Origin: an uncultured euryarchaeote
Lineage (GTDB): Archaea; Thermoplasmatota; Poseidoniia; Poseidoniales; Poseidoniaceae
Assembly (NCBI GenBank): GCA_937892945.1
Contig: CALBIL010000038.1
Span: forward strand, 66,102-130,101
Direction of reading: 5' to 3'
Length of the DNA stretch: 64,000 nt
Below, one piece after another: positions 12,709 through 62,110 of the stretch (position 1 is its first letter; each line of letters begins with the position of its first letter). Made by a program: the position numbers and the translations under genes. The notes under the pieces are model-generated. The model was not told the DNA's origin and made no database searches. It saw only the letters and a program-made list of their open reading frames with translations.

Positions 12709-14181
12709 ATGCCTGACGATGAATACTTCGGGTCGGATGACACCGAGCAAGAAATTGAACGATTGGGTCGTGTCGCAAAACAACTGATTTGGACCACTCC
12801 CCAAAACCGTAAAATCCACCTGACTGTACCCCCGACAGTATACCCCCCACGAGAGGATACAGATCTTCTTTCACAAGTCGTCCACCAATACCCGGATCCG
12901 AATGGAAAGCGATTCCTGGAAATTGGTTGTGGCTCTGGCGCTGTTTCTCTTTTTGCCGCCCAACTTGGATTCTGCGTCACAGCGTGTGACATCAACCCCT
13001 TTGCCGTTGCGAGCAGTAGGAATTCCGCTCAAGAGAACGGCATAGAAATCGATGTACGGGAAGGTGGACCCGGCCCACAATCCGATGGTGGAACTGAACA
13101 ATGGGCAGGAGAGACGCCTCACGACATCATCGTGTGGAACCTTCCTTATTTGATGCCTGAAAGGAACACGCAGCATCTCGGACCCTTCGAAGAAGCGGCA
13201 TTGCTCGACACCGATGACAAAGGACTCGTCAACCGCCTCTTACATCACCTCAAAACTTCGAATATTCTCGCAACTGATGGAGTCGTGTACCTCCTTGTAT
13301 CGCAGAACGAGAGAGGAAAGGCTGCACGAACACTCTGCCTCCGAAATGGATTTGCAGTTCGAACAATCACCACACATACATTTGATGATGACGAATGTTT
13401 GGAAGTTCTCGGAGTGTGGAGGCCTTTTCAATTTCATTCAAAATCATTGGAAAAGGAAATCAATTCAACCAACACCTCGCTGTTAAACTCGGATGATAAA
13501 GAGGGCAGTTTTTTACAAGCAGGCCGTCAAACAGCAGGCCATGGACGCCGAGGACGCGCATGGTCACATGAAGACATTGCCTTTGCAGGTTCATGGGTCA
13601 TCCATGAACGCTCAACATCTCCAAACCCAGGCCTACTTCAACTTCAAGGCGGCTTAGCTTTGTATGAAACAATCGCGGCACTCACACAGACCACTAACAC
13701 TCAAATTATGAAATGGCCAAATGATGTTCTTCTTGTGATTGATGGAGAGTTACGGAAAGTGGGCGGCATCTTAGTTGAAGGAATAAGTCAAGGTAAATAC
13801 ACACGGATCATTCTCGGCATTGGATGCAACATCTCCGCACAAAAAGTGGAAAAAAAGGGATACTCAATCGCAACACTTCAAGAACTCAATACCGAAATAA
13901 CACTCACTGCTTTCGAATCGGTAATCCAAGCAGCGGTTGCTTCATGGTTTGAGCAGAAAGAGGGGATGAATGAATTGAAACAAAAGTCGATAATTGCCAA
14001 GTATACATCTCTTTTTTCCAAAGGATTACAAGCCCTCGGAGCACCAATCTATAGAGCACAAAGTATGACCTTTGTTGAGACGGAAAGTAAAGGCAGAATC
14101 ATACTCCAAGATCGCATGGGAAACATACATCTCGTCCAAGATGGTGAAGATATTACATGGACAAACTACGCCACAAATTAG
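12709..14181 (+). CDS. Fusion protein: N-terminal Mtq2/HemK-like SAM-dependent N5-glutamine methyltransferase, C-terminal biotin--protein ligase (BirA catalytic domain)
   Basis: Methyltransferase half: VYPPREDTDLL, motif I LEIGCGSGAVS, motif IV NLPY (an NPPY variant). BirA half: GRQTAGHGRRGRAWS, KWPNDVLL, KVGGILVEG. One uninterrupted 490-aa ORF. Confidence 0.75.
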   Translation: MPDDEYFGSDDTEQEIERLGRVAKQLIWTTPQNRKIHLTVPPTVYPPREDTDLLSQVVHQYPDPNGKRFLEIGCGSGAVSLFAAQLGFCVTACDINPFAVASSRNSAQENGIEIDVREGGPGPQSDGGTEQWAGETPHDIIVWNLPYLMPERNTQHLGPFEEAALLDTDDKGLVNRLLHHLKTSNILATDGVVYLLVSQNERGKAARTLCLRNGFAVRTITTHTFDDDECLEVLGVWRPFQFHSKSLEKEINSTNTSLLNSDDKEGSFLQAGRQTAGHGRRGRAWSHEDIAFAGSWVIHERSTSPNPGLLQLQGGLALYETIAALTQTTNTQIMKWPNDVLLVIDGELRKVGGILVEGISQGKYTRIILGIGCNISAQKVEKKGYSIATLQELNTEITLTAFESVIQAAVASWFEQKEGMNELKQKSIIAKYTSLFSKGLQALGAPIYRAQSMTFVETESKGRIILQDRMGNIHLVQDGEDITWTNYATN

Positions 14182-18034: not shown

Positions 18035-18862
18035 ATGCGCGGGAGCACATTTTCTATACGTTCGGGAGTGGTACTCGCGCTTGCCATTTTACTTTTCGTT
18101 CCGGGTTTTGCTTCGTCACTCCACGGAGGCATTGGTGGCGCCCAGGACAACGCCGGCGAAACGATTGATGACGTCGCTAAAGAAGGCTGTCTTTGCCATA
18201 ATGGCGCCGCTGACAATTCAGTTCAAATCATACTCGACGATGTCCCATACGGATGGATTGGTGGCGAAACATACACATTGACCCTCCAAATCATCGGTGG
18301 ACCAGCCGCCACAGGAACATACACTGCAGGATTTTCAATGCGAACAACCGCCGGCATCCTTTCGGGCGATGGTTTGCAAAACTGGGAAGGCGATGTTACG
18401 ACCCTCACACACACTGAATCAACGGCGAATGTGGCTGAACGGATGTGGGTATTCACATGGCAAGCACCAGAAACAGGCGCAGACACAGTCAACTTCTGGA
18501 TTACAGGAAACTCAGTCAACGGCGACCAATTGAATAATGGTGGCGGTGAAGAAGACCGTTGGAACCAATTGCTGTTCCCCCTTCAAGAAGGAAGCGATTC
18601 AACCAGTGCACTTGGAACTCGGACCCTGTTTGCCGGCGATGGAAATGTCAGCCCACCTCAACCGGAATCTCATGGCGTCGACCTTGAGCACATGGGTGCT
18701 GAACTCCGAGCCCATTGGCTTGGATTGCTTGGGTTTGGAGCAGTTCTGATCGTCATTGCTTTTGCAGGACTCATGCTCCGATACAGTTTCTCAACATCAT
18801 ACACCGGACGTACAAATCAATTGCGATTGCGATACAAACTCATGCGACGAGGTGACCAGTGA
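18035..18862 (+). CDS. Secreted, C-terminally membrane-anchored protein heading the Rieske/cyt b operon. Candidate CbsA-like extracellular redox partner (inference).
   Basis: Signal peptide MRGSTFSIRSGVVLALAILLFVPGFASS, C-terminal TM LGLLGFGAVLIVIAFAGLML plus a basic tail. Contains GCLCHNG. Same strand and tight spacing with the downstream genes. Confidence 0.55.
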   Translation: MRGSTFSIRSGVVLALAILLFVPGFASSLHGGIGGAQDNAGETIDDVAKEGCLCHNGAADNSVQIILDDVPYGWIGGETYTLTLQIIGGPAATGTYTAGFSMRTTAGILSGDGLQNWEGDVTTLTHTESTANVAERMWVFTWQAPETGADTVNFWITGNSVNGDQLNNGGGEEDRWNQLLFPLQEGSDSTSALGTRTLFAGDGNVSPPQPESHGVDLEHMGAELRAHWLGLLGFGAVLIVIAFAGLMLRYSFSTSYTGRTNQLRLRYKLMRRGDQ

Positions 18863-19305
18863 TGGACGATACAATCACCACGCTGTTACGCAAGGTCGCA
18901 AGTGGGAAAGTAAGTGTCGAGGATGCCCGTGTTGCCCTCGAAGATGCTTCTTTGACTGAAGACCAAATGCAATCCGCTATCGACCATGGTGTATTCAATC
19001 TCGCCGAATCAGGAACACTGGTCAGTGCATCGCTTGCACCATCAGGCGCTTCGAACCTGATTATGATCTTCTTTGTCTGGGGCCTTTTCTGGTCGTGCTA
19101 CTGGGTATTCTCAATGATTTATGGACTTGCTCAAGGCTGGGACCAACAGCAACTCGCCTATCACCTCGCCATGATGTTGATCACACTCTGTTTGATGGGA
19201 ATGGCTTACCTTAAGTTCGTATTACCGAATGCAATTATTGTCAAGCATGGAATGAATAAGTTCGTTCCAGAACATACAAAGGATTGGAAGGAGTACAAGT
19301 GGTGA
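18859..19305 (+). CDS. Small hydrophobic membrane protein (CbsB-like by position only)
   Basis: 148 aa. Track start is GTG at 18859; the ATG at 18862 overlaps the upstream stop. 3-4 predicted TM helices. Confidence 0.45.
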   Translation: MMDDTITTLLRKVASGKVSVEDARVALEDASLTEDQMQSAIDHGVFNLAESGTLVSASLAPSGASNLIMIFFVWGLFWSCYWVFSMIYGLAQGWDQQQLAYHLAMMLITLCLMGMAYLKFVLPNAIIVKHGMNKFVPEHTKDWKEYKW

Positions 19306-19311
19306 AGATCT

Positions 19312-20157
19312 ATGGCACGTGAATACGACCTCAAACCAGCTCCTTCATCCGGAGACAGCACGGGTGGAGATACGTCTTCCTCGGTGAACCGCCGTCAATT
19401 TTTGCGCTACGGGTTTAACACCGCAACAGGTGTCTTGGCTGCGTCTCTTGGCGTTCTTGGTTTCGCCGCTATTTTGCTTCCACCGGGTGGCACGAACGAA
19501 GGTGAACTCGGCGTCAAGTTCTGGGCAAAGGGTCGAGAAGACAGCGCTTGGTATGGTGCAAAGCACGAACAAATGATGATGCGGCAAGATTTCGTTGATG
19601 AAGCTGCAAAGTCAAACACTGAGACCTCTGGAGCTGCTGGAATTTGGAATGGAGTCCCTGTCGTAGTTACCTACGTCACCCATTCCCAATATGCAAACAC
19701 TCCTTTGTCAAACGGTAAAGCCCGATTCCAATTCACCGAGGGAGTCGATGAGACAGGAAAAACCATCGGCCATTTTGAAGATTTGAGTGACGCTGACCCT
19801 CGCCTGCTACCATCCGATAACTTGGTGATGATCTTTGCCCGTTGCACCCACTTGTGCTGTATACCTGGTTGGCAATTAGTTTCGAACTCTTTTACTGAAG
19901 ATTCATGGACGCCAGGTGGCGGAGACGATGGTGGCACCAAACTGTTCTGTATTTGCCACTCATCCCGATTCGACCCTACCGTACTCGAGATGAATACCAA
20001 TAGAAACCGTGGCGATGGTTCGACGTTCAACTACGCAGGTATTCGGCGTGCTGGAGGACCTGCTCCTGTCGGACTACCAATTATTCCAATTGTTCTCAAT
20101 GGAGATGCAATAGAAGGCATCGTTGACTATTTGGATTGGTACACATATTGTGACTGA
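19312..20157 (+). CDS. Rieske [2Fe-2S] iron-sulfur protein
   Basis: Box I CTHLCC, box II CICHSS, N-terminal Tat-like/TM region (RRQFLRYG). Confidence 0.85.
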   Translation: MAREYDLKPAPSSGDSTGGDTSSSVNRRQFLRYGFNTATGVLAASLGVLGFAAILLPPGGTNEGELGVKFWAKGREDSAWYGAKHEQMMMRQDFVDEAAKSNTETSGAAGIWNGVPVVVTYVTHSQYANTPLSNGKARFQFTEGVDETGKTIGHFEDLSDADPRLLPSDNLVMIFARCTHLCCIPGWQLVSNSFTEDSWTPGGGDDGGTKLFCICHSSRFDPTVLEMNTNRNRGDGSTFNYAGIRRAGGPAPVGLPIIPIVLNGDAIEGIVDYLDWYTYCD

Positions 20158-20168
20158 GGTGATTATGT

Positions 20169-21035
20169 ATGACAACAATGTTTTGGATTCTTTGGTTTTT
20201 CATCGCCTTCGTGGTCGTGTTAGTCGCATTGACTCTTCGTCAAGAGAGCAGTGATATGCCTCGTCGAGAAATTCTTCGAGCAGTTGAATCAACTGGTAAG
20301 ATGGGCTTTGCAGAACGTTTGTTCTTGTGGGTATTCTCATGGCTCGATACCCGTTTCCGCCTCCAAGACTACTGGAACATGTCCAAAGGTGCCTATTACA
20401 ACATGCATCGACAGATGCCATTGTCTCACGCTGAGAAGTATAAACTCAGAATTATTTGGTACTGGTATCCACTGTATTGTCTCGGAGGTATTTCCTTCCT
20501 TTCATTCATTATATTGGTCATCACAGGAACTGTCCTTGGAATTTACTACGTACCTGGCGGAGAAGGGGATCCTTCACCTGCCTACGCAAGTATGCAATTC
20601 ATCATGACTGAACTTCCATTCGGCTATATTATTCGTGCAGTTCATCACTGGGCGACTCACTTCATGGTTGCCAGTGTATTTCTCCATATGTGTCGTGTTT
20701 ACTTCACCGGTGCTTACCGCAACCCTCGTGAACTCAACTGGCTGATTGGAGTTGCACTAATGGCATTAACCATTGTCTTTGGATATTCGGGCTACCTCCT
20801 ACCATGGGATTCATTGGCTTACGGTGCCGCTGTAATTGGAATTAACTTAGCCAATTCAAGCCCCTTGGTTGGTAAATATATTGCCACTTTACTGTTTAGT
20901 GGCTCTTCACTTACTTCACTAACTGTAACTCGGATGTATTTCATTCACGTCTTCATTCTCCCCGTGATTGTGACTACGCTGATCATTATTCACTTATTCA
21001 TTGTCTGGGTACAGGGCATTGCAGAACCACATTGA
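20169..21035 (+). CDS. Cytochrome b, N-terminal (b6-like) half of a split cytochrome b
   Basis: RAVHHWATHFMVASVFLHMCRVYFTGAYRNPRELNWLIGV...LLPWD, with heme-ligand His pairs in helices B and D. 288 aa, about the size of cyt b6. Confidence 0.85.
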   Translation: MTTMFWILWFFIAFVVVLVALTLRQESSDMPRREILRAVESTGKMGFAERLFLWVFSWLDTRFRLQDYWNMSKGAYYNMHRQMPLSHAEKYKLRIIWYWYPLYCLGGISFLSFIILVITGTVLGIYYVPGGEGDPSPAYASMQFIMTELPFGYIIRAVHHWATHFMVASVFLHMCRVYFTGAYRNPRELNWLIGVALMALTIVFGYSGYLLPWDSLAYGAAVIGINLANSSPLVGKYIATLLFSGSSLTSLTVTRMYFIHVFILPVIVTTLIIIHLFIVWVQGIAEPH

Positions 21036-21040
21036 TATTC

Positions 21041-21045
21041 GGAGG
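21041..21045 (+). promoter_or_regulatory. Shine-Dalgarno GGAGG 7 nt upstream of the 942-aa gene start
   Basis: ggaggataatacATG. Confidence 0.45.
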
Positions 21046-21052
21046 ATAATAC

Positions 21053-23881
21053 ATGGGACTAATCGAGAATTTCGGACGTGTGGCTTCTTCCTATATGGAA
21101 GAGAAAGAGCAATTGCAAGCTGTAGAGGGTAAGCGAACCCGTACTCGAACAGGTCATGGATTCTGGCCACACGAAGTTCTTCGTGATGCCATACTGCTTT
21201 CATTCATGACTGCAGTTCTTCTGTTCTATGCATGGTTGATTCCACCACCACTTCACGGTGCTGCTGACCCCTATGCACAAGCTGGTTTCGTGTTCCCTGA
21301 TTGGTACGTATTGTTCTCATACGGGTATTTACGTTGGGGAGAATATCTCCCACAATTCACTGTTCCAACTGGATTCATTGGTGAAATTGTTGGCCAACCT
21401 GTCTTCCCATGGAACGCAGCATGGTGGGGAGCAGCACTCACTGGTATTCCAGTCAGTATCCTTGCTCTACCTCCGTTCCTTGGTGGACGTGAAAAGCGAC
21501 CTGTTGAAGATCCTTGGTTTGCTACTGCTGGCGCAGTCTATCTGGCTCACATCTGGTTTATTTCCGTCTTTTCAATCAATATTTTCTTGGAGTTATATGC
21601 GAAAAACCGTTCGGACTTTTGTAAACTCGATAGCCACGGCGATTTGTTATGTGGTACAAGAGAACCTTGGGTTGCTGACGCGTTCAATACCATCCCCTGG
21701 GTTATGACGGGTGTTCTTGCTTGGATCTGTATCTATTTCTTGGCCCGTGGATTGATTGTCAAAGCATGGGGTGCTGGATTCAAGCCAAGTCATGCAAAGC
21801 AAATACTCATTGGAACACTCTTGATTTCGACTGCAGGAACCGTCGCTACATGGGACACTTACGATGATGGTTTTTGGGACCAAGGCGGATTGCTTACAAT
21901 CAAGGGACTAACCCACGATTACTATCCTGAACTCGAAGCCATGCGCACTCAACCAACGGATGTTCAGGTCCATGCTACAAACGAATTCACAGATGACCGA
22001 GGCTGGAGTGAATCTGAAACGGTACCAACGACTGCTTGGATGGATTGGGTAATTTACCAACCTGCTCGCTATATCCTTACTGACTTTAATGATGCGAATG
22101 GACATCAAGATGCTGCAAACGGAATCAATGCTGCATCCGATGCAACGACCTTCAACGGTGGCGAAGGCTGGATTACAACTGGCTCTTTCACCGTCACTGA
22201 AGACATGGCATTATTCCCCGATGGGCACCATGAAAGTGTGGAAACACTCACAACAGACCTCATTTGTGAATACCGTTCTTCAGAGCGAAAAATCAATGAC
22301 ATCTCAACTGTATCGATGATCGCTACCACTTTATCCGTGGCCAATAGCAATGGAGACATTGTATCTTCATTCGATAATTGTCTCGGTGCTACGGTTGAAT
22401 TACCCGTTGGAACCTATGACTACACCTACTCGGTTGCCGTCAGTGGTGCTCTTGCACTGAACAACAGTATTCAAACTGAAACTTCTTTCTCCATCGCTTC
22501 TTTCCAACCGCTCTTGGTTTGGAACGAAGATGCACCCGCATCTCTAGCAGGCATGACGGTCAATCTTTCAAATGCTGAAGAAATGGCAATTGGTGGGACG
22601 CAATTTTCCTCCGTTGAAAACCCAACGTACCATACCAATCCCAAAGCACTCGATGCCAAACTCACCTATGCAATGTTCATTCCTTGTTTGACTTTTGGTG
22701 CAATGGTCTTCATTCTTCTACGCTCAATGGGTCGTGGATATGAGTTTGAGATGAACAAGTGCTACGGCTGTGACTTGTGCGACGATGCTTGTCCTGTTCG
22801 TTTGTTTAATGGTGGAGACAAACTCAATATCATTTACAATTCGTGGAACAATGAGGACGATGGTGTACCCATGTATTCCTGTCTGACCTGTACCGCATGT
22901 ACAAATGCGTGCCCTCAACTGGTTGATTACGACTCATACGTTGACATTCGGCGCTCCCTTATTGTCGGTGGACCACAAGCTGAAATTGCACACACTGTAC
23001 TGCAGGCAGTTCTTGCAGCTGAAGCTGAAGAAACGGCAAATGATGATTTCATCACCGTCAAAGATTACCCATTGACTTCCAACATCGGATATTACCCTGG
23101 ATGTGTTGATTACCTCGACCAAGAGATGGTGTTCTCACACGTCAATGAAGGTGACATGAACCTCGGTGATGCTACAACCTCTGCCTTCACCTTATTCGAT
23201 GAGATGGAAATGGATGTATCGTACCTTGGACGGGACTTCTTGAAGTGCTGTGGACACGACCAAAAGTGGCAAGGGCTCGATGAAGTATTTGACAAACTCA
23301 AAGCCTACAATCAAAAGAAGATTGAACAATCTGGCATTGATACTCTTGTGTCTTCATGCGCTGAATGTTTCCGAACCTTTGCTCGTGATTACGAACTTGA
23401 AGGCGTCAAGGTCATGCATACGACTGAATTCTTGATTGAAAATGGATTCGATATGAACCTCAAGGCAGAGGAAGAAACAACCGTTACCTATCACGACCCA
23501 TGTCGACTTGGACGTCAAATGGGAATCTATGAAGAACCAAGGCAACTTATTGCTGGTGTTGAAGGCGTAGAGATCGTCGAAATGGAACACAGCGGCGAAG
23601 ATGCAATGTGCTGTGGAGTCTCGAGCATGATGTCATGTAACGAAAACGCTCGTTCACTCCGTGTCACTCGCATGGAAGAAATTCGTGCTACTGGTGCAGA
23701 TACAATGCTGACCTCTTGTCCAAAGTGTGTCTCACACTTTGAATGTCTCAAGTTTGAAGGCGATGAGCGATACGAAGATATTGAGATTCTCGATGTTGTT
23801 TCTTTCCTTGCTCGCCAAGTTGAAGCGAAGAAGGCACGAGCTGTATCTGAATCAAGTACTGTACTCGAAGTCGAAGCTTGA
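21053..23881 (+). CDS. Fusion: cytochrome b C-terminal (subunit-IV-like, PDWY) membrane domain + large extracytoplasmic insert + 2x[4Fe-4S] ferredoxin + HdrD-like Cys-rich (CCG) domains
   Basis: FPDWYVLFSYGYLRW is the PEWY motif of the cyt b C-terminal domain. CYGCDLCDDACP and CLTCTACTNACP are two 4Fe-4S motifs. KCCGHDQ and MCCGVS...CPKCVSHFEC are CCG-domain signatures. Confidence 0.8.
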   Translation: MGLIENFGRVASSYMEEKEQLQAVEGKRTRTRTGHGFWPHEVLRDAILLSFMTAVLLFYAWLIPPPLHGAADPYAQAGFVFPDWYVLFSYGYLRWGEYLPQFTVPTGFIGEIVGQPVFPWNAAWWGAALTGIPVSILALPPFLGGREKRPVEDPWFATAGAVYLAHIWFISVFSINIFLELYAKNRSDFCKLDSHGDLLCGTREPWVADAFNTIPWVMTGVLAWICIYFLARGLIVKAWGAGFKPSHAKQILIGTLLISTAGTVATWDTYDDGFWDQGGLLTIKGLTHDYYPELEAMRTQPTDVQVHATNEFTDDRGWSESETVPTTAWMDWVIYQPARYILTDFNDANGHQDAANGINAASDATTFNGGEGWITTGSFTVTEDMALFPDGHHESVETLTTDLICEYRSSERKINDISTVSMIATTLSVANSNGDIVSSFDNCLGATVELPVGTYDYTYSVAVSGALALNNSIQTETSFSIASFQPLLVWNEDAPASLAGMTVNLSNAEEMAIGGTQFSSVENPTYHTNPKALDAKLTYAMFIPCLTFGAMVFILLRSMGRGYEFEMNKCYGCDLCDDACPVRLFNGGDKLNIIYNSWNNEDDGVPMYSCLTCTACTNACPQLVDYDSYVDIRRSLIVGGPQAEIAHTVLQAVLAAEAEETANDDFITVKDYPLTSNIGYYPGCVDYLDQEMVFSHVNEGDMNLGDATTSAFTLFDEMEMDVSYLGRDFLKCCGHDQKWQGLDEVFDKLKAYNQKKIEQSGIDTLVSSCAECFRTFARDYELEGVKVMHTTEFLIENGFDMNLKAEEETTVTYHDPCRLGRQMGIYEEPRQLIAGVEGVEIVEMEHSGEDAMCCGVSSMMSCNENARSLRVTRMEEIRATGADTMLTSCPKCVSHFECLKFEGDERYEDIEILDVVSFLARQVEAKKARAVSESSTVLEVEA

Positions 23882-23925: not shown

Positions 23926-24666
23926 ATGGATTACGACAGCATGACTGTTTTACAACTGAAAAACTTATGCAAGGATCGTGGGATACGAATCTCCGGTAAC
24001 AAAGCAGAAGTTGTCATCCGATTGATGGAAGATGATGAATCCTCAGTCCCACAACAACAACTTCAAGTCCCTCAACAGTCATTTCCACAGCATGTCCAAG
24101 GTGGTTATGCGCCTGCACAAACAATCTATGTCAAGAAGGAAGATGAACTCGCATCTGGAATTGGGACATGTATCATAATTTATGCAATCTTTCGATTGTT
24201 TTGGGCTGTTATATTTTCAACAGGAGGAGGAGGGGCTGAGGCTTGGTTACTCTCTCCAGTAGCCTTCTTGTTAGGTGTCGGTTTTTTAATTGGAGGAGTT
24301 ATTACCTATTCTGGTTATCGAAATGGAGTATATATCACACTTGCTATCCTCGCAGTCTCGGGCCTATTTAGTGTAGCATTTCACGGAGACGAACCAAACC
24401 CTGTATCCATCGCATGGGGTGAGGAAATGATCATGACTTCACTCATGTGCTCATTTACTTGTATGATTATTGTAGCTTTGCCGTTAATGCTTTCGAAACT
24501 CAAAGGGGGATGGCCAATACCAATTGAAAATCTCTTGTACAGAAACCAGTCGACGGATGGTAAGAAAAATATTGAGTGCCAATCATGTAAGGCGGAATTA
24601 CGAGTCCCAAGTGACTACTCTGGACAAATTGAATGCCCGACCTGTAAATCTCAAATGAATGTTTAA
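23926..24666 (+). CDS. SAP-domain membrane protein with C-terminal zinc ribbon
   Basis: N-terminal TVLQLKNLCKDRGIRISGNKAEVVIRLME matches the SAP motif. Gln-rich linker, ~4 TM helices, C-terminal CQSC...CPTC. Confidence 0.6.
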   Translation: MDYDSMTVLQLKNLCKDRGIRISGNKAEVVIRLMEDDESSVPQQQLQVPQQSFPQHVQGGYAPAQTIYVKKEDELASGIGTCIIIYAIFRLFWAVIFSTGGGGAEAWLLSPVAFLLGVGFLIGGVITYSGYRNGVYITLAILAVSGLFSVAFHGDEPNPVSIAWGEEMIMTSLMCSFTCMIIVALPLMLSKLKGGWPIPIENLLYRNQSTDGKKNIECQSCKAELRVPSDYSGQIECPTCKSQMNV

Positions 24667-24667
24667 G

Positions 24668-24979
24668 TCAATCTTCTTGCGCAGGTGATTGTCCATCATC
24701 CATTCCAACGATTTCATAGTTTGAGGGAAACAAAGCAATGACGACGCCCAAAATCAAGGAAGCAAGACCCCAACCGAACATCTGCCGAACGAAAAGCATC
24801 TCAAGGGCAATGACGACCAAAATCATACCACCTATGTTCGAAGTCCAAACCAGCGTTTTGAATGTTGAGAGAGAAACGCCAGGCGTTCCTTCTTTGCGAT
24901 ATGGGCCAAATTCACCACCAAACCGTTGGGCTGTATCTTGTTTATCTTTCTTTGACATCGTGTTCACCTCATCGATCAA
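24668..24979 (-). CDS. Small membrane protein (2 TM), hypothetical
   Basis: 103 aa. Start overlaps the stop of the upstream ferredoxin gene. Confidence 0.4.
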   Translation of the reverse strand: MIDEVNTMSKKDKQDTAQRFGGEFGPYRKEGTPGVSLSTFKTLVWTSNIGGMILVVIALEMLFVRQMFGWGLASLILGVVIALFPSNYEIVGMDDGQSPAQED

Positions 24980-25301
24980 TCATTGTGATGGCATCGGTTG
25001 GGCATGCTAAGACACACAACCGGCAACCTGTGCAATCTGCACGTAGAATCTTGGCTTTTTGATTTGACTCTACATGAATCAAAGGACTCACCATATCGAC
25101 CTTATACATCTCAATGGCATCATCGTCACAAACAATGGTACATTGGTCACAACCAATGCAGAGACGTTCTTCAACAAAAGCAACGGCAGTCTCACCACCT
25201 TTGAGGGATGCACGTTGTTCACCTCGAAGTCTGTTGAGTGAAGTACGAATGCGTATAGCCTCCTGTTCTCGACGCTTTCGCAACTCGTCGGAGGAGGTCA
25301 T
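24969..25301 (-). CDS. 2x[4Fe-4S] ferredoxin
   Basis: CIGCDQCTIVCDDDAI and CTGCRLCVLACPTDAI. Confidence 0.7.
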   Translation of the reverse strand: MTSSDELRKRREQEAIRIRTSLNRLRGEQRASLKGGETAVAFVEERLCIGCDQCTIVCDDDAIEMYKVDMVSPLIHVESNQKAKILRADCTGCRLCVLACPTDAITMIDR

Positions 25302-26002
25302 ACAGTCACCTCCACCGGGTCCTTCCCTTCAAACTTGACGACAGCCATGTTCACCAAAAGGTCGCCAAGACAATAGAAAGAACCCACCAACAGTGGAGGA
25401 TTCCAAGCGGTTAAGCCCGTCCAAGGAACCTGATTTGCCCATGTCCAGTTACCGAGTGAAGTTCCCCAGATTTCCATAGCCAATGCAGCCCAAGCCATTG
25501 CTGAGTACAATCGTGGTTGAGGACCCCACTTTGTGAAGATTAAAACAAGAGCCAAAAGGAAAACTGCTGAAGTGTCGCCACCAGTCCACGCACCATAGGC
25601 AACCAACGGAACAAAAGGTGCCAGCAAGGGTAACGCCCAAGTTTCTTTCATCGTGTCTGCGGCCATTCGCCCAAGGTCAAACAGGAAATAGTGACCTGCA
25701 GGAACAAACAATGGCATGAGACCGCGTTGATATTCATAGATCAGCCAGATTTCGCTAAAGAACAATTCCATTGGTGTTGCAATTGCAATCACTGTAATCA
25801 TTTCAATACGCTGCTTACGGCTTCCACCTCGATAAAACCAAGCGAAAAGGCCCCAGCACCAGAGATTGACGGGTAATTCTGCATATTCGTCTCCAACCAG
25901 GCCGTTACAAGCTGTTGCGGAAAACCAGAGCCCTAGAGCAATGGTGCCAATGTAGACCCACGCTCTGTTCATGTTCATACGAGGAGGTCCACCACTTAGC
26001 AA
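25298..26002 (-). CDS. Integral membrane protein, Trp/aromatic-rich, unknown function
   Basis: 234 aa, ~7 hydrophobic helices. 4-nt overlap with the ferredoxin gene. Confidence 0.45.
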   Translation of the reverse strand: MLSGGPPRMNMNRAWVYIGTIALGLWFSATACNGLVGDEYAELPVNLWCWGLFAWFYRGGSRKQRIEMITVIAIATPMELFFSEIWLIYEYQRGLMPLFVPAGHYFLFDLGRMAADTMKETWALPLLAPFVPLVAYGAWTGGDTSAVFLLALVLIFTKWGPQPRLYSAMAWAALAMEIWGTSLGNWTWANQVPWTGLTAWNPPLLVGSFYCLGDLLVNMAVVKFEGKDPVEVTV

Positions 26003-26011
26003 GAACGGATG

Positions 26012-27229
26012 TTATTGATGCCCGTAGGAAAGTAATTCCTTACCCATTGCTAACATGGAAAGTTCTGCAACTAAGGCATGCCAACCGTGTGCATGTTCAC
26101 CGTATTGACCACCTGATTGTGAAAAAGATTCAAATTGGGCACTCGGAGAATTCAAATTATCAATATCCGATTTCTTAGAATTTATTCTATAGAACCATGA
26201 AGCAGCCTGGCCGTCAACTAAATAGACGACAGGTTCGACAGGAGCGCCTTCATCGTTTTCCAAAATGGTCGGAATTCCTTCTTGTATCAGGAAGTTTTCG
26301 ACATCAACACCGCCTTTCGAGTACATCAATCGATTCATTTTACGGTTTGAGAGTTGTAATAATTCGCTTCCGCTGCGAACAGTCATGATTCCGAGACCGT
26401 ATGTGCCTCTATCGTTTTTGATGAAAACGACAGGTTCCCGATCAACGCCGTGTTCCAAGTACTTTTGACGCAGTTGTTCCAAAAAGGAGTCAACTTCAGC
26501 AGCCAGTTCAATTCTACAGGCTTCTTTCTCTAAGCATTTATTTTTCGAGACAAACCATTCAGCCATGAAGTGCCAAGGGTCGATATCGAGCATCTGAGCG
26601 ATTTCTTCTACATATTCACGAAGAACCTCATAATGCTGAGATTTCCTTCGACGGTGCCAGCCCATTGAAGGAGGCGGAGATACAATTTGATTGCTAAGAC
26701 CTGCAACAATACCTTCAGTCAAATCATTATTCAGGAGAATCAAGTCTGGCGCTTTTCCATCGATTAACAGAATTTCTTTTCCATCTTTCTGCGATGATTT
26801 GACTTGGTCGAGTTTCAAAGCACCTGAAAGACCAATCAGGTGGCCCAATTCTACGAAATCCACGGAACCAACAGTGCATCGAAATCCTGCGATTTCCAGT
26901 AATTCTTTCAATGCGATGAGATTTTCAACATATCCTTTGTTCCGAGTATGTGATTCAGGGTAAAGATGGACCCATTCGCAGTCTGTGTATTCACGCAGAA
27001 TATGAGTTTTGAGAAGTGCGCCAATGGACGGTTTATCTTCTGATGAAACATTGTTGAAACCTGCAGGAAAGTGATTTGCATCTACGACACTGATTTTCCA
27101 ACCAGCATCCCGAATGTCAACACTACCATAGATTGGAATCGGCACTTCACTTCTTTTTTGAGTCATCCATGCAGTGAGTTCTGCACGCTTGCTTTCAAGC
27201 ACAGGTGCTAAATTATGAACAAATGTCAA
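26012..27229 (-). CDS. Putative ATP-grasp-type carboxylate-amine ligase (GSP-synthetase/GshA-like; family uncertain)
   Basis: 405 aa. VVFIKNDRGTYGLGIMTV resembles the ATP-grasp K..G..G.GI nucleotide-binding motif. Translationally coupled to asnB (4-nt overlap). Confidence 0.4.
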   Translation of the reverse strand: MTFVHNLAPVLESKRAELTAWMTQKRSEVPIPIYGSVDIRDAGWKISVVDANHFPAGFNNVSSEDKPSIGALLKTHILREYTDCEWVHLYPESHTRNKGYVENLIALKELLEIAGFRCTVGSVDFVELGHLIGLSGALKLDQVKSSQKDGKEILLIDGKAPDLILLNNDLTEGIVAGLSNQIVSPPPSMGWHRRRKSQHYEVLREYVEEIAQMLDIDPWHFMAEWFVSKNKCLEKEACRIELAAEVDSFLEQLRQKYLEHGVDREPVVFIKNDRGTYGLGIMTVRSGSELLQLSNRKMNRLMYSKGGVDVENFLIQEGIPTILENDEGAPVEPVVYLVDGQAASWFYRINSKKSDIDNLNSPSAQFESFSQSGGQYGEHAHGWHALVAELSMLAMGKELLSYGHQ

Positions 27230-33614: not shown

Positions 33615-33860
33615 ATGCTCATGGGCGGCTCAGCGGTATGTGATTTCCTCGGATGTGGCGAAGAAGGAACTATTGTTTCTCGACTTTCACCAGAAGGTTT
33701 TCTTGTCGCTACTGGCAAAAAGGCATATTCATTCAGAGAAGCATACCGACGATTTCACTACTGTGGCAATCACCATGATGAATTGATGGGTGGAGTTTGG
33801 TCACGGGTTCGCAAACCAGAAGATAAAAAAGAAGGCCACGTTGCACCTACCGCAATTTAA
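33615..33860 (+). CDS. Small Cys/His-rich protein (possible zinc-binding), hypothetical
   Basis: 81 aa, with CDFLGC ... YCGNHH. Its stop overlaps the start of the 1397-aa gene by 1 nt. Confidence 0.3.
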   Translation: MLMGGSAVCDFLGCGEEGTIVSRLSPEGFLVATGKKAYSFREAYRRFHYCGNHHDELMGGVWSRVRKPEDKKEGHVAPTAI

Positions 33861-36800
33861 TGCGGAATAGAGAGTGTCTTAAACTACGACTCAATCCCAT
33901 GCTTATGTCCTCTCCCTTGAGTTCAACGAATCCCAATAAATCGAGTTCCATTCTCTTGGCATTGATGCTTGTCGTAACGACGCTTACTTTGTCTGCACCA
34001 AGCGTATCTGCCGTCGGTCCAAATCAAAACGATTTCGGATTATCTATGGATTTACCAGACACCATGTCAGGACTCAATTCATCCTTTGTAGCAAACCTTT
34101 CAGGATTGGCACCTGTGTATTTTCCTGACTTCGGAGAGTTCGATGTCAATGATGATGAAGACTGGCTCGCAGTTAACCTTTCAGCCTATGAAGGTTTAGC
34201 CCTGGAACTTTCCTTTAATTCAACATATACTTCAGCCAACGGAACAACGTATTCCAATGATTTTGATCTTGCAATCTATGATGCGAATGGAAATTTTATC
34301 GATGAATCATATATGTACAACCCCGAGTCTGTAAGCACAAATAATTCAGCAACTCCACATGGAGGGACTGTTTTCATCCAGATGTCTCGTTATGACGGGT
34401 ATGGATTCTATACGCTTGAACTCTGGACATTCAGCACCTCAACAGGCAACGGTACTGGTGGCAATAGTAGCGGAGGAAACGCAATACCAAGCCCATGTAC
34501 TGGGAACGGTACTGCACCGGACATCTTAGAACCCAATGATTCACCTGCGACTGCGACTGTAGCCTCATTATTGCCGGTTATCTGCACTGGATTAAGTGTC
34601 GAAATAAGTTCTGCTGGAGTTGCCAATGATGATTATTACGAAATACAAATGATCAGTGGAGTCACCTACTACTTCAATTTGACATTCTATCATTCCAATG
34701 GCGATGTTGATGCAACTTTACAAGATGCTTCTGGAAATTCTCTTTCTTTCAATAATTTCGCGAGTATGTCTTCTTCATCAGATAATGAAGCAGCGTCATA
34801 TACTGCTGCATCAAATTTCACAGCATACTTCAAAGTGTATCATTACTCATCATTTGGGTCTGTTGGAGTTATTGCGAATACATATGCCGTCTCAATCACT
34901 ACAAACTTACCAGGCGGTGGGCAAAGTTTTCAGTCCGTCACCGTGACCATGAATGGAACAACTGATTCAATGCTTGAATTCACGGGATTGACCGTTGGAG
35001 ATTCCTATCTTTATAATTATTCAAATGTTCAGTTTTTCTTGAATGGTACTGAAAGTTGGTCTGCGCCAACCAATTCCACCCTCAATGCAACAGCAACGAC
35101 CATGCTTGCCAATGCGACATCGGCAAGCCCGCTTATGGAAGAATCGGATTACTGTTCTATTTCGGTCTTGAAAGACGCCATAGGAGCAATGATCGATGAA
35201 GATCGAGATTGTATCTACATCGAAATGCTCGAAGCTTACGTAACCTCTTCAACAACAGGGGAAATATATGCAACAAACCTCAGTACATACACCGGTTATA
35301 CAGTATGGTGGCTTGTCTATGATATGGTCGAATTCGATAACAATTACACGACTTCGATGGATGTCGATATGGCACTCGCAGCATCAATGATTGACCAAAT
35401 GAACGTCACGTTCACTACCAGTACGGCCACATCTGAATCGTGGCAAATTACATGGAATGGACCAACGACCATGAATGATCACGGGTTTGTTACTTTCCTT
35501 TCTTACAATAACACTCTCGTTAATCTGACTTCCAATGAAGGATTTATTGGCGTTCATGATGATGATTTCACCCCACAATTGCCGACCATGTTGATCGATT
35601 CTTATTCAACAAGTTCAACTTCAGCCACCAATGATGTCATGGTCAAAGGCAGCGACCTTGTTACAGGAGACGATTACAAATATCAAATCTTAGTCACTGA
35701 TAGTGCAGGTGCATCGTTGGCTACTTCAACCCTCAGTACCTTTACTGCAACAGCACAGAACATGAGCATGCCAACATTTACGTATGCTACACCAAACATG
35801 AGTGGTATTTACTGCGCAGTCGTCAATCTCTACTCGGCAGCAAGCGTTCAATTGATCGGCGACAGTGATTGTTTCTCACTGACCATCGATGATGATAATG
35901 ATGGAGTTGCCAATGAATACGATCTATGTGCCAACACAACTGCTGGTGCTTCGGTCGACATGGATGGTTGTGAACTTTCTCAGAAAGATTCCGACGGTGA
36001 CGGCTACAACGATATGGTTGATGATTTCCCTTACGACAGCAGCCAATATTCAGATATGGATGGCGATGGGTATGGCGATGACCCAACTGGTAATTCACCC
36101 GATGCTTTTCCGCTTGACAGTTCCCAATGGGATGACCAAGATGGTGACGGCTATGGAGATAATCTAAACGGCAACTCATCCGATGCTTTCCCTTACGATT
36201 CAACACAATGGGCAGACCAAGACGGTGATGGCTACGGAGATAACGCCGCAGGAAATTATGCTGATGAATATCCTACCGATTCAACGCAATGGGAAGATAC
36301 AGATGGTGATGGATTCGGTGACAACCCAACGGGCACCAACGGTGATGCTTTCCCTACGGATTCATCTCAATGGGCAGACCAAGATGGTGATGGGTATGGT
36401 GACAATCCAACTGGAACCACTCCTGACCAATTCCCTACTGATTCAACCCAATGGACCGACACCGACGGTGATGGCTACGGGGATAACCCGACAGGAAACA
36501 ACGGTGATGCTTTCCCTGCAGATGTAACCCAATGGGCTGACGAAGATGGCGATGGCTACGGAGATAACCAAGCAGGCACCAACCCGGATGCTTTCCCAAT
36601 GGACGGGACTCAATGGGAAGATGCCGATGGTGATGGATACGGAGATAACCAAAATGGAAACATGGCTGACCGATTCCCTACTGAACCAACACAATGGTCC
36701 GATGCAGATGGAGACAGCTATGGTGATAATCCAAACGGCGATACTCCAGACCATTGTTTGAACACACCCGCAGGTCAATCCGTTGATTCAATGGGATGTT

Positions 36801-38053
36801 CAGAACAACAGAAAGACGATGATCTCGATGGAGTCAGTAATGACCTCGATGCATGTCCAATGACCCCTGCAGGTGAAAACGTCGACCCTACAGGATGTTC
36901 AGGCTCTCAAGAAGACGGCGATAATGATGGAATCATGGATGCATTCGATGCTTGTCCAATGACACCACTTGGCTCTTCAGTCGATAGCGCAGGATGCGCC
37001 GATATGCAACGAGATACTGATGGAGATGGGATTAATGACCAACTCGATGAATGCCCAACGACCACACCGGCAACTTTGGTCAACGGCATTGGCTGCTCAT
37101 CTGCTGAACGTGATACTGATGGAGATGGTGTCAATGACATTGATGATTTTTGCCCAATGACTGTGGACGAAGATGAGGTAAATGACGATGGGTGTTCAAA
37201 CGCTCAGCGGGATGATGACAATGATGCAATCATGAACGATGTCGATGAATGTCCAGATACTGAACTCGGTCTTATAACGGACGCCTCTGGATGTGCTGAC
37301 AATCAAAAGGATGCTGATGACGACATGATTGATGATACCATTGACACCTGCCCTGCAACGCCTTCAGGCGAGCAAGTCAATCCAGAAGGTTGCGCTGAAT
37401 CTCAAATTGATGAAGACAATGACACAATTAAAAATCACAAAGATTTGTGCCCTGATTCAGATGAATCGCACGGTGTTGATCTCGATGGATGCTCAGAGTA
37501 TCAAAAAGACGATGATGAAGATGGAGTCAAGAATGTTGATGATGACTGCCCTCTCTCACCTATTGGTGGAATTGTTTTCGACGATGGATGTGCTTTGACA
37601 CAGATGGATACCGACCAAGATGGAATTAATGATGCTGAAGATGATTTCCCATTAGACCGTAACGAAACGACAGATACTGATGGAGATGGAGTTTCAGACA
37701 CCTATGATTACTATCCCGAAGATGCTGCACGCTCAGAACAGGACACAGAAGACGGTGGAGGCGGACTTGTTTACGCAATTCTTGCCCTCCTAGCACTCTG
37801 TGGCCTTGGTGCACTGCTCGTTGTTCGAAAGAGCCAAGAATCTGTTGTTGAGAGTTCACCATTTGCAACTCAAAACTATACAGATACTGCTACTGACGCA
37901 CACATGGGAACCGAAGCGTCAAAGGAACTCCCCGTAATTGCAGAAGAACCTCAACAATGGGAAGAAGCCGGTGTCAATTGGTCGAAAGCTGCTGATGGAA
38001 GTTTATCGTATTACGATACTGCATCGAGTTCTTGGGTCCCTTACGAAGGTTAA
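33860..38053 (+). CDS. Giant surface protein (1397 aa): signal peptide, N-glycosylation-sequon-rich beta domains, two blocks of thrombospondin-type-3-like Ca-binding repeats, C-terminal TM anchor
   Basis: N-terminal hydrophobic leader. Many N-x-S/T sequons. 27-aa DGDGYGDNPxG...DAFPxDSTQW repeats, then C-P-x-T-P-x-G-x-x-V-D-x-x-G-C Asp-rich repeats. C-terminal LVYAILALLALCGLGALLVV plus RK. Confidence 0.85.
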   Translation: MRNRECLKLRLNPMLMSSPLSSTNPNKSSSILLALMLVVTTLTLSAPSVSAVGPNQNDFGLSMDLPDTMSGLNSSFVANLSGLAPVYFPDFGEFDVNDDEDWLAVNLSAYEGLALELSFNSTYTSANGTTYSNDFDLAIYDANGNFIDESYMYNPESVSTNNSATPHGGTVFIQMSRYDGYGFYTLELWTFSTSTGNGTGGNSSGGNAIPSPCTGNGTAPDILEPNDSPATATVASLLPVICTGLSVEISSAGVANDDYYEIQMISGVTYYFNLTFYHSNGDVDATLQDASGNSLSFNNFASMSSSSDNEAASYTAASNFTAYFKVYHYSSFGSVGVIANTYAVSITTNLPGGGQSFQSVTVTMNGTTDSMLEFTGLTVGDSYLYNYSNVQFFLNGTESWSAPTNSTLNATATTMLANATSASPLMEESDYCSISVLKDAIGAMIDEDRDCIYIEMLEAYVTSSTTGEIYATNLSTYTGYTVWWLVYDMVEFDNNYTTSMDVDMALAASMIDQMNVTFTTSTATSESWQITWNGPTTMNDHGFVTFLSYNNTLVNLTSNEGFIGVHDDDFTPQLPTMLIDSYSTSSTSATNDVMVKGSDLVTGDDYKYQILVTDSAGASLATSTLSTFTATAQNMSMPTFTYATPNMSGIYCAVVNLYSAASVQLIGDSDCFSLTIDDDNDGVANEYDLCANTTAGASVDMDGCELSQKDSDGDGYNDMVDDFPYDSSQYSDMDGDGYGDDPTGNSPDAFPLDSSQWDDQDGDGYGDNLNGNSSDAFPYDSTQWADQDGDGYGDNAAGNYADEYPTDSTQWEDTDGDGFGDNPTGTNGDAFPTDSSQWADQDGDGYGDNPTGTTPDQFPTDSTQWTDTDGDGYGDNPTGNNGDAFPADVTQWADEDGDGYGDNQAGTNPDAFPMDGTQWEDADGDGYGDNQNGNMADRFPTEPTQWSDADGDSYGDNPNGDTPDHCLNTPAGQSVDSMGCSEQQKDDDLDGVSNDLDACPMTPAGENVDPTGCSGSQEDGDNDGIMDAFDACPMTPLGSSVDSAGCADMQRDTDGDGINDQLDECPTTTPATLVNGIGCSSAERDTDGDGVNDIDDFCPMTVDEDEVNDDGCSNAQRDDDNDAIMNDVDECPDTELGLITDASGCADNQKDADDDMIDDTIDTCPATPSGEQVNPEGCAESQIDEDNDTIKNHKDLCPDSDESHGVDLDGCSEYQKDDDEDGVKNVDDDCPLSPIGGIVFDDGCALTQMDTDQDGINDAEDDFPLDRNETTDTDGDGVSDTYDYYPEDAARSEQDTEDGGGGLVYAILALLALCGLGALLVVRKSQESVVESSPFATQNYTDTATDAHMGTEASKELPVIAEEPQQWEEAGVNWSKAADGSLSYYDTASSSWVPYEG
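35990..36757 (+). repeat. Coding tandem repeat, ~9-10 copies of an 81-bp (27-aa) unit (TSP3-like, DxDGDGYGDN)
   Basis: Period verified by counting one unit from gatggtgatggg to accgacacc (81 nt). Successive units are 70-90% identical. Confidence 0.7.
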
Positions 38054-57383: not shown

Positions 57384-57510
57384 CAATGCTCTCAAAAATA
57401 ATTCATGCGAAAATAACGCAGATTCTAGGTTTGTACGGCGCATGACCAAAAAAGACCACAGCACATCTTTTTGAAAGGCAAAGCATAGGATGAAGCAAGG
57501 GGGAACATGT

Positions 57511-58539: not shown

Positions 58540-58548
58540 GGTGGAACA

Positions 58549-59790: not shown

Positions 59791-59796
59791 GGTGAG

Positions 59797-60810: not shown

Positions 60811-60812
60811 AT

Positions 60813-62099: not shown

Positions 62100-62110
62100 G
62101 GTGCTAAAAT

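Follow-up and report, generated by a model that had tools for sequence, protein, structure and literature searches.

An HdrD-like iron–sulfur module fused to the subunit IV domain of a Rieske/cytochrome b complex in Marine Group II archaea

Analysis of a 64,000-nucleotide stretch of an uncultured Poseidoniales genome (contig CALBIL010000038.1; hereafter the window) identified a gene at 21053–23881 on the plus (+) strand in which the subunit IV, or C-terminal, domain of a cytochrome b is fused by way of an ecto-domain to an HdrD-like Fe–S module. Reading-frame analysis, Pfam matches and profile comparison together define a product of 942 aa, and the gene is the fifth and last of a Rieske/cytochrome b operon (18035–23881). 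These data incline us towards the view that the complex of Marine Group II (MGII) archaea is a b6f-type Rieske/cytochrome b complex combined with an Fe–S wire of the HdrD/EtfD type, a design widespread in uncultured archaea. By analogy with known systems, the module probably gives the complex a direct electrical link to the cell interior that ordinary bc1 and b6f complexes lack.

The fusion protein and its domains

The frame consists of 942 open codons with an ATG start. A preliminary description of the gene, made from the sequence alone, had pointed to a PEWY-type motif near the N-terminus and to two 4Fe-4S and two CCG-type cysteine clusters further downstream, and all of these could be located in the protein. 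FPDWYVLF occupies residues 81–88, the two ferredoxin-type (Fer4) motifs read C570xxC573xxC576xxxC580P and C610xxC613xxC616xxxC620P, and the two CCG motifs read C684...KC732C733GHD...C769AEC772 and C817...MC853C854GVS...C889PKC892. Pfam agreed, recognising a 4Fe-4S dicluster domain at residues 566–622 and, after it, the CCG domain twice (6e-22). The cytochrome b and Rieske genes that the same description had placed upstream both lie directly 5′ of the fusion gene.

A protein search with the fusion returned more than 480 clusters, in which full-length members among those listed are 915–942 aa long, share 59–97% identity and come from many independent assemblies. At the genome level, the 80 best matches in the GTDB species set were examined, and an uninterrupted fusion gene within the same operon was present at 80/80 of these loci, the top one being 98% identical and belonging to a Ca. 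Poseidoniales metagenome-assembled genome (MAG). The five genes stand in the same order at every locus with enough flanking sequence (62/80), and the same operon was found in more distant Poseidoniales at 60–62% identity (L088 and L089). Across the Poseidoniales sampled here, the fusion is universal. Within MGII, mean identity is 95% for the Fer4 domain and 83–87% for the CCG domains, compared with 45% for the ecto-domain; the Fe–S module is the most conserved part of the protein and is under selective constraint. The preliminary description had itself raised the possibility that a frameshift or an assembly error had joined separate petD-like and hdrD-like genes. Nothing was found in favour of such an artefact or of a pseudogene, although the failure of Pfam to match the N-terminus could have hinted at a spurious frame. 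Because the orthologues and their operon are conserved across independent assemblies and hundreds of genomes, this explanation is excluded for all practical purposes, by the cluster and locus counts as well as by the domain-wise selective conservation and by the short-form fusions that exist in other phyla.

The 80 loci are labelled Poseidoniales, Poseidoniaceae or 'Euryarchaeota/Methanobacteriota/Thermoplasmatota archaeon', with the sole exception of a Verrucomicrobiales-labelled locus that is probably mis-binned. MAGs labelled Verrucomicrobiales (L037, NZEQ01000055.1) and Flavobacteriales (P0098) contain the MGII fusion gene in full or in part. Both copies most likely reflect binning contamination rather than transfer, in the case of L037 because it holds the entire archaeal operon together with the ftsZ neighbourhood.

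Residues 1–275 (21053–21877, +) were assigned to a cytochrome b C-terminal/subunit IV domain by hhalign, by profile comparison and by helices predicted with AlphaFold2 (AF2). Pfam gave no match for residues 1–279, even at E<=10, and NCBIfam gave no subunit IV match for the fusion protein; the curated family models PF00032 and TIGR01156 do not recognise it. By contrast, a profile (A2) made from an alignment of 69 MGII and short-form sequences matched a full-length cytochrome b bearing PF00033 and PF00032 (P0222) at 99.3% (E 9.8e-21), with fusion residues 35–175 aligned to cytochrome b residues 250–374 across helices E, ef, F and G. Among solved structures, the same profile matched cytochrome b (1.4e-13) and subunit IV of b6f (9.9e-12). 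The short forms had to be added to the profile for a significant match to solved cytochrome b; a profile from 28 MGII sequences alone gave sub-threshold, positionally correct matches to cytochrome b and subunit IV in the PDB (E 0.26–2). A phmmer search with residues 1–275 against 1.84 billion representatives returned 108 proteins. Beyond MGII these comprised proteins of 543–789 aa with PF00032 above the gathering score followed by Fer4 and two CCG domains, proteins in which PF00032 is joined to Fer4 alone, full-length cytochromes b whose C-terminal domain gave the match, and a QcrC-like fusion of subunit IV to a di-haem cytochrome c (P0226).

The PDWY Qo-site motif (residues 82–85; 21296–21307, +) was read from the alignment of 69 sequences, in which P82, D83 and W84 are invariant and Y85 is kept in at least 90%, and PDWY is present in every short form. 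Given the profile matches and the invariance of P82, D83 and W84, the N-terminus is classed as a divergent but genuine subunit IV/cytochrome b C-terminal domain. The earlier assignment to this family was upheld as homology by profile methods, not by a Pfam Cytochrom_B_C match. Fold searches with the AF2 model added nothing on the N-terminal domain, and model confidence for the membrane part is only moderate. In common with PetD/PF00032 proteins, the domain has helices E-F-G, with WPxExL at the beginning of helix E and a Qo motif of the P[DE]W[YF] type in its ef loop, and a gene lying directly after that of a split four-helix cytochrome b6 with the haem cn motif CxGG. Compared with PetD, the fusion protein is longer by a helix H, which long bc1 cytochromes b also have, by one more helix, by the 265-aa ecto-domain, by a sixth helix and by the cytoplasmic Fe–S module of 385 aa, and it is too divergent for the Pfam model. 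As the preliminary description had stated, this architecture is not part of standard bc1 or b6f complexes; it is not, however, peculiar to one organism, since it occurs in several archaeal lineages.

Two AF2 models were generated, of which the first (28 sequences) was too poor to use, with a mean predicted local distance difference test (pLDDT) score of 61 and values below 50 at the N-terminus. The second (69 sequences) reached a pLDDT of 73.9, the Fer4 region staying low, and predicted helices at residues 39–62 (E), 83–96 (ef), 122–137 (F), 154–183 (G), 206–242 (H), 245–271 (I) and 532–559 (sixth). Hydropathy agrees with this model on the transmembrane (TM) helices and gives residues 537–555 for TM6, which is placed at about residues 537–557 (22661–22723, +). 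Between TM5 and TM6 lies a variable, predicted extracytoplasmic beta-sandwich domain (residues 272–535; 21866–22657, +), which corresponds to the loop of ~250 aa between additional TM helices that had been noticed in the sequence. This ecto-domain, of ~265 aa, contains no cofactor motif, and the loop gave no Pfam match even at E<=10. The short forms lack the ecto-domain hairpin and have four helices before the Fer4 motif, compared with six in the protein described here. In b6f complexes, the N-terminus of subunit IV is on the n-side (cytoplasm) by established topology. Because the helix count is even in both the long and the short forms, the Fe–S module is placed on the same side of the membrane as the subunit IV N-terminus. 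The six predicted TM helices therefore put the Fe–S/CCG module in the cytoplasm, and not outside the cell, where the preliminary description would have given it a different role. Pairs of conserved cysteines in the predicted outer loops (C190 and C200, both invariant; C405, invariant, and C443, at least 90%) fit this topology. The first Fer4 cysteine follows ~12 residues after the last TM helix.

The cytoplasmic portion begins with an HdrC-like 2x[4Fe-4S] ferredoxin domain (residues 566–624; 22748–22924, +), recognised by Pfam Fer4_8/9/10, in which all 8 cysteines are invariant in A2 (n=69). CCG domain 1 (about residues 680–775; 23090–23377, +; C684, C732, C733, C769, C772; Pfam CCG) is followed by CCG domain 2 (residues 811–898; 23483–23746, +; C817, C853, C854, C889, C892), which contains two further invariant cysteines (C862 and C898). 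Of the ten CCG cysteines, C733 is kept in at least 90% of the sequences and the other nine are invariant. The A2 profile matched EtfD (7.8e-42), HdrC (1.4e-10) and HdrB (1.1e-8) over this region, Foldseek with the model found LutA (target TM-score 0.78), and NCBIfam gave partial matches to TfrB (5e-33), LdhH, GlpC and GlcF, with no equivalog cutoff reached by the fusion protein. Two CXnCCGXmCXXC domains after a 2x[4Fe-4S] ferredoxin domain are the arrangement that defines HdrD/CCG (PF02754) proteins. By its motifs, the module is of the HdrD type, that is, HdrC-like plus HdrB-like, with the ligands for two cubane [4Fe-4S] clusters and two CCG (noncubane-type) sites, and the HdrD-like module proposed in the preliminary description was in this way verified by Pfam and profile matches. 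The closest stand-alone relative of the fusion, with 44% identity (E 2e-100), is encoded by the first gene of an hdrC-hdrB-hdrA-mvhD cluster in Ca. Methanoperedens.

Two known systems provide the closest comparisons. HdrD of the Methanosarcina HdrDE enzyme is the equivalent of an HdrC+HdrB fusion. The MGII protein differs from it in that its membrane partner is a Rieske/cytochrome b6 complex rather than the NarI-like HdrE, of which the operon has no copy, in that the link is covalent, in that no equivalog cutoff is reached and in that the host is reported to be an aerobic heterotroph (PMC6336850). In the cryo-electron microscopy structure of EtfD (PDB 9ojn, Rv0338c family), CCG clusters lead to two [4Fe-4S] clusters, to haem b and to menaquinone at 4–9 A spacing; the first CCG motif is degenerate (CTG) and holds a linear [3Fe-4S] cluster, His583 replaces the bridging cysteine, and the clusters are non-catalytic (PMC13083937). 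As in EtfD, the Fer4 domain of the fusion directly follows the last TM helix, and in EtfD this domain contacts the haem. Unlike EtfD, the fusion keeps both CCG motifs intact, with KCCGHD aligned to CTG and SCAECF (CAEC) to CPHC, and in retaining both CC pairs its sequence resembles catalytic Hdr more than EtfD. The membrane domains also differ, that of EtfD being a five-helix mono-haem HdrE-like cytochrome and that of the fusion a cytochrome b C-terminal domain. The similarity to EtfD is confined to fusion residues 606–930, and neither of two tests for EtfD-type membership placed the protein in that class.

The operon, its neighbourhood and its archaeal relatives

All five operon genes lie on the + strand and are tightly spaced or overlapping. 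Directly before the fusion gene is that of a split b6-type cytochrome b (20169–21035, +; 288 aa; PF00033 4.5e-42) with helices A–D and an extra N-terminal TM helix. Its best PDB match is cytochrome b6 (4.7e-44), and C104 of its YCLGG motif aligns with Cys35, to which haem cn is covalently attached in b6. The motif is conserved among MGII orthologues and in nearly all cytochromes b encoded by fusion-bearing operons, which likewise have the b6-type H-x13-H and H-x14-H spacings; these were computed for the 288-aa MGII orthologues (L088/L089) and are visible in the window sequence. CxGG has been treated as the signature of haem cn (Dibrova et al., PMC5600118), and on this motif the cytochrome b probably carries that haem. 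The protein is 92–99% identical across MGIIa loci. A split four-helix cytochrome b with four histidine ligands and CxGG, a Rieske protein and subunit IV are encoded in one operon, as is characteristic of a b6f-type complex. The extra TM helix of the cytochrome b (residues 5–23) and a stretch of ~80 aa precede helix A (20169–20470). Thermoplasmata relatives instead carry Big_5 Ig-like ecto-domains of ~600 aa at the cytochrome b N-terminus, so that large extracellular domains are grafted on the complex in both lineages, on different subunits.

The Rieske [2Fe-2S] protein (19312–20157, +; 281 aa) has a twin-arginine translocation (TAT) signal with an RRQFL motif, a TM anchor, and CTHLCC (178–183) and CICHS (213–217) boxes, motifs that are conserved in 71 orthologues; its TIGR01416 match (4.8e-10) is below the family cutoff. 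The Pfam Rieske model misses both the MGII and the Geothermarchaeales Rieske proteins. The window protein and the one at L084:594–1265 share the unusual CTHLCC box and a C-terminal DWY(T/D)YC(D/G) with an extra cysteine. A small two-TM membrane protein of 148 aa (18859–19305, +) is DUF7318-like by a weak match (E 0.0024), and a DUF7318 gene stands 5′ of the Rieske gene in Thermoplasmata and Geothermarchaeales operons and in MGIIb.

The first operon gene (18035–18862, +) encodes an exported choice-of-anchor V protein of 275 aa (NCBIfam NF041895, 2.7e-22) with a signal peptide, a C-terminal TM anchor (TM segments 11–29 and 229–247) and a conserved basic cytoplasmic tail, LRLRYK..RRGDQ. In its GCLCHN motif, C52, C54 and H55 are kept in at least 95% of 65 aligned orthologues, and the gene is retained in 62/80 loci, which are all those with enough flank. 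At one relative locus (L083), the same slot holds a pentahaem cytochrome c gene. A p-side c-type cytochrome (f or c1) was not found in the operon, whose proteins have no Pfam or NCBIfam cytochrome c family match and no CxxCH motif. The choice-of-anchor V protein, for which neither a solved relative nor any literature was found, may be a p-side partner of the Rieske protein or a novel acceptor of its electrons. A promoter and terminator scan of the region was uninformative for an archaeon. MGII had previously been described as having cytochrome b and a Rieske protein, no canonical bc1 and an orphan RnfB (Tully 2019, PMC6336850), and as aerobic heterotrophs with no indicated anaerobic metabolism (PMC6336850).

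Downstream of the operon, a convergent triplet (24668–26002, −), delimited by synteny and Fer4 matches, encodes a 103-aa two-TM protein, an RnfB-like 2x[4Fe-4S] ferredoxin of 110 aa (24969–25301, −; Fer4) and a 234-aa membrane protein. The best NCBIfam match of the ferredoxin, to an rnfB subfamily, is below cutoff (1.5e-11), and its gene is probably that of the orphan RnfB reported for MGII. The ferredoxin also has a basic N-terminal extension, and its 234-aa neighbour is polytopic and without family matches. The triplet adjoins the fusion gene in 53/59 MGIIa loci and is inverted yet adjacent in L073, L075 and L076, and the ferredoxin is again near the fusion gene in the more distant Poseidoniales L088 and L089. 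This synteny suggests the triplet as a candidate cytoplasmic partner of the fusion. Between the fusion gene and the triplet lies a gene for a SAP-domain and zinc-ribbon protein (23926–24666, +), which is restricted to the closest relatives (15/59 loci) and fast-evolving (40–95% identity). A GshA gene (26012–27229) is 2 kb from the fusion gene in MGIIa. On the other side, upstream of ftsZ and the operon, a fusion of a PrmA-like methyltransferase domain to a biotin/lipoate protein ligase domain (12709–14181, +) is conserved, including in the MGIIb-type L089:1933–3291. An electron transfer flavoprotein (ETF), considered as a partner by analogy with EtfD, was rejected, as no ETF genes were present among the window open reading frames (ORFs) scanned and no support was found in the literature.

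Fusions of PF00032, Fer4 and CCG domains in a short form of 540–800 aa occur in a Thermoplasmata genome, in a Geothermarchaeales MAG and on many metagenomic contigs. Four loci, from the one Thermoplasmata genome and three metagenomic contigs, share the order DUF7318, Rieske, Ig-domain::cytochrome b, fusion and polyferredoxin::MvhD/FlpD. In the L083 MAG, genes for a pentahaem cytochrome c, a small TM protein, a Rieske protein, cytochrome b and the fusion are followed by those of HdrC-like, HdrB-like and HdrA-like proteins and MvhD, while the Geothermarchaeales order is DUF7318, Rieske-like, cytochrome b, fusion, FrhB-like, HdrA-like, MvhD, HdrD-like and GcvH. The fusion is a recurrent archaeal design, followed in these relatives by genes for cytoplasmic electron-transfer partners. 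A search with a subunit IV::Fer4 protein from a Halobacteria MAG returned 19 relatives, the named ones being MAGs and none identifiably cultured. Rieske/cytochrome b cores with extra redox modules are also known from Bacillus-type QcrC and anammox complexes. In QcrC (subunit IV::cytochrome c), three helices precede a p-side module, whereas that of the fusion is predicted on the n-side after an even number. The cytoplasmic NAD(P) oxidoreductase modules of anammox complexes are separate flavoprotein subunits, not HdrD-like fusions.

Diamond et al. 2022 (PMC9038741) reported hdrD-like and rnfB-like genes beside complex III in Ca. Angelarchaeales and proposed that electrons from reduced ferredoxin may enter at complex III. 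The idea is the same, and the likeness to the MGII operon runs through the Thermoplasmata loci analysed here; their passage on these genes does not describe the hdrD-like gene as fused to a cytochrome b C-terminal domain. It probably belongs to the same gene family as the fusion, the loci analysed here being assigned to Thermoplasmata only. MGII differs from the Thermoplasmata loci in having the long form, which includes an ecto-domain, and in encoding a small ferredoxin separately where those loci encode a polyferredoxin-MvhD protein. A model paper on Methanoperedens does not link HdrD to its Rieske/cytochrome b complex, and the searchable reviews of cytochrome bc evolution do not mention Fe–S or CCG fusions. 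In a literature search of incomplete coverage, no account was found that describes HdrD as covalently fused to subunit IV or this fusion as universal in MGII. Neighbouring hdrD-like and rnfB-like genes at complex III were thus already known, and it is the covalent fusion for which no description was found.

Possible routes of electrons through the module

Our preferred reading, which we hold with some reservation, is that the fused Fe–S module acts as an electron wire between the n-side haems (bn and cn) and a cytoplasmic partner. Because the ferredoxin domain starts ~12 residues after TM6, the cluster chain would lie against the n-side membrane face, where it could stand beside haem bn and the covalent haem cn at the Qi pocket, within tunnelling distance. 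Such wiring would be comparable to that of HdrD to the haems of HdrE and of the EtfD clusters to EtfD haem b, analogies on which the complex is probably wired to a cytoplasmic redox module. As for direction, we tentatively favour electron entry, in which a cytoplasmic donor would pass electrons through the Fe–S chain to haem cn/bn, from where they would reach quinone at Qi. Either the RnfB-like ferredoxin encoded nearby or, at the CCG site, a thiol couple could serve as donor. Complex III would in that case have a second function as a donor:quinone oxidoreductase, and the quinol would be re-oxidised at its own Qo site. EtfD, HdrDE operating in reverse and the proposed ferredoxin-to-haem cn route of b6f would be analogues of this scheme. 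An aerobic heterotroph must find a sink for its low-potential electrons, and Rnf is reported to be missing from MGII, which we count in favour of entry. The CCG substrate need not be a disulfide, a ferredoxin-type partner being at least as likely.

Several observations weigh against a wire fed by a cytoplasmic donor. No result constrains the direction of electron flow, and the full set of CCG cysteines, as in catalytic HdrB/HdrD, fits thiol/disulfide chemistry better than ferredoxin oxidation. The MGII operons have no partner gene in line and are without the HdrA and MvhD genes of the relatives. Linkage of the ferredoxin to the fusion is synteny within one order, in which gene order is conserved in general as well, and its resemblance to the Thermoplasmata polyferredoxin-MvhD is generic Fer4 similarity only. 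Moreover, the AF2 model is of a single chain without cofactors, with a pLDDT of 40–60 in the Fer4 region.

The full cysteine set is the starting point for the reverse direction, the main rival, which we regard as unlikely and in which an electron from Qo would travel through bL and bn/cn into the Fe–S chain and reach a cytoplasmic acceptor at the CCG site rather than quinone at Qi. The acceptor could be bis-gamma-glutamylcystine, a lipoyl protein, another low-molecular-weight or protein disulfide, or ferredoxin, while the other electron would enter the Rieske/high-potential branch. All ten CCG cysteines are kept, among them both CC pairs, which have a catalytic role in HdrB, whereas the relay-only EtfD has lost one (PMC13083937). 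Outflow of this kind would also agree with the position of the 44% identical stand-alone relative at the head of its Methanoperedens hdrCBA-mvhD cluster, with relatives that adjoin HdrA-type bifurcating flavoproteins and with GshA 2 kb away in MGIIa. HdrDE and DsrMK likewise run from quinol to disulfide. That lipoyl protein or gamma-glutamylcysteine is the CCG substrate is speculation, drawn from a loose neighbourhood comprising the 12709–14181 ligase, GshA and the GcvH of L084. On the other hand, a disulfide carrier gene is absent from the MGII operon and the GshA adjacency is lost in MGIIb, electron flow to the n-side would oppose the membrane potential and require the full driving force of the high-potential branch, and an aerobic heterotroph has NADPH-dependent disulfide reduction. 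Rieske/cytochrome b complexes of anammox bacteria have been proposed to make NAD(P)H in a comparable way (PMC12954380), which again speaks for outflow. A true quinol-driven bifurcation, in which Qo oxidation pulled by the oxygen-linked branch would send the second electron via bL and bn/cn to the HdrD module, appears rather improbable. If true, it would yield low-potential cytoplasmic reductant (ferredoxin or thiols) in an archaeal group that is among the most abundant of the surface ocean, and in the relatives with neighbouring HdrA and MvhD genes it would link Q-cycle-type bifurcation directly to the flavin-based one.

A further explanation dispenses with the wire altogether, subunit IV doing no more than attach its partner to the membrane, close to the quinone pool, and the HdrD-like module being an independent dehydrogenase or quinone reductase of the SdhE, GlpC or LutA type that exchanges no electrons with the cytochrome b haems. 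CCG proteins are indeed membrane-associated electron- or quinone-interacting subunits in several dehydrogenases, and the partial NCBIfam matches (TfrB, LdhH, GlpC, GlcF) and the Foldseek match to LutA point the same way. We nevertheless judge it very unlikely, since the operon contains no gene for a dehydrogenase catalytic subunit, since the subunit IV fusion recurs in at least four divergent archaeal lineages, always in Rieske/cytochrome b operons, and since Fer4 directly follows the last TM helix, as in EtfD.

Remaining genes of the window and implications

Elsewhere in the window (57490–63541, +), a lipoyl synthase gene stands before the full set of genes for a 2-oxoacid dehydrogenase complex (E1 alpha, E1 beta, lipoyl-E2, E3). 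The E2 ORF as called (60558–62099) starts at TTG and shares ~250 nt with the E1 beta ORF, its true start probably being further downstream. Three very large ORFs, of 1397 aa (33860–38053, +), 3022 aa (44339–53407, −) and 985 aa (53424–56381, −), may encode surface or adhesion proteins; the 1397- and 985-aa products had no Pfam match at E<=1e-5.

MGII archaea are globally abundant and uncultured, and their complex III was earlier described as cytochrome b and Rieske protein only. Its composition can now be given as five conserved subunits with a b6-type core, a probable haem cn and no cytochrome c. The fused HdrD module offers a testable answer to the role of the orphan 'RnfB' and to how low-potential electrons might enter or leave without Rnf. 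The fusion would represent a natural case in which soluble redox chemistry is hard-wired to the n-side haems of a Rieske/cytochrome b complex. As such, it bears on the long-debated role of haem cn as a ferredoxin-facing entry point in cyclic electron flow through b6f, as well as on the proposed bifurcation of electrons to cytoplasmic acceptors by some bc complexes, and the short forms beside HdrABC/MvhD genes extend the question to anaerobic archaea.

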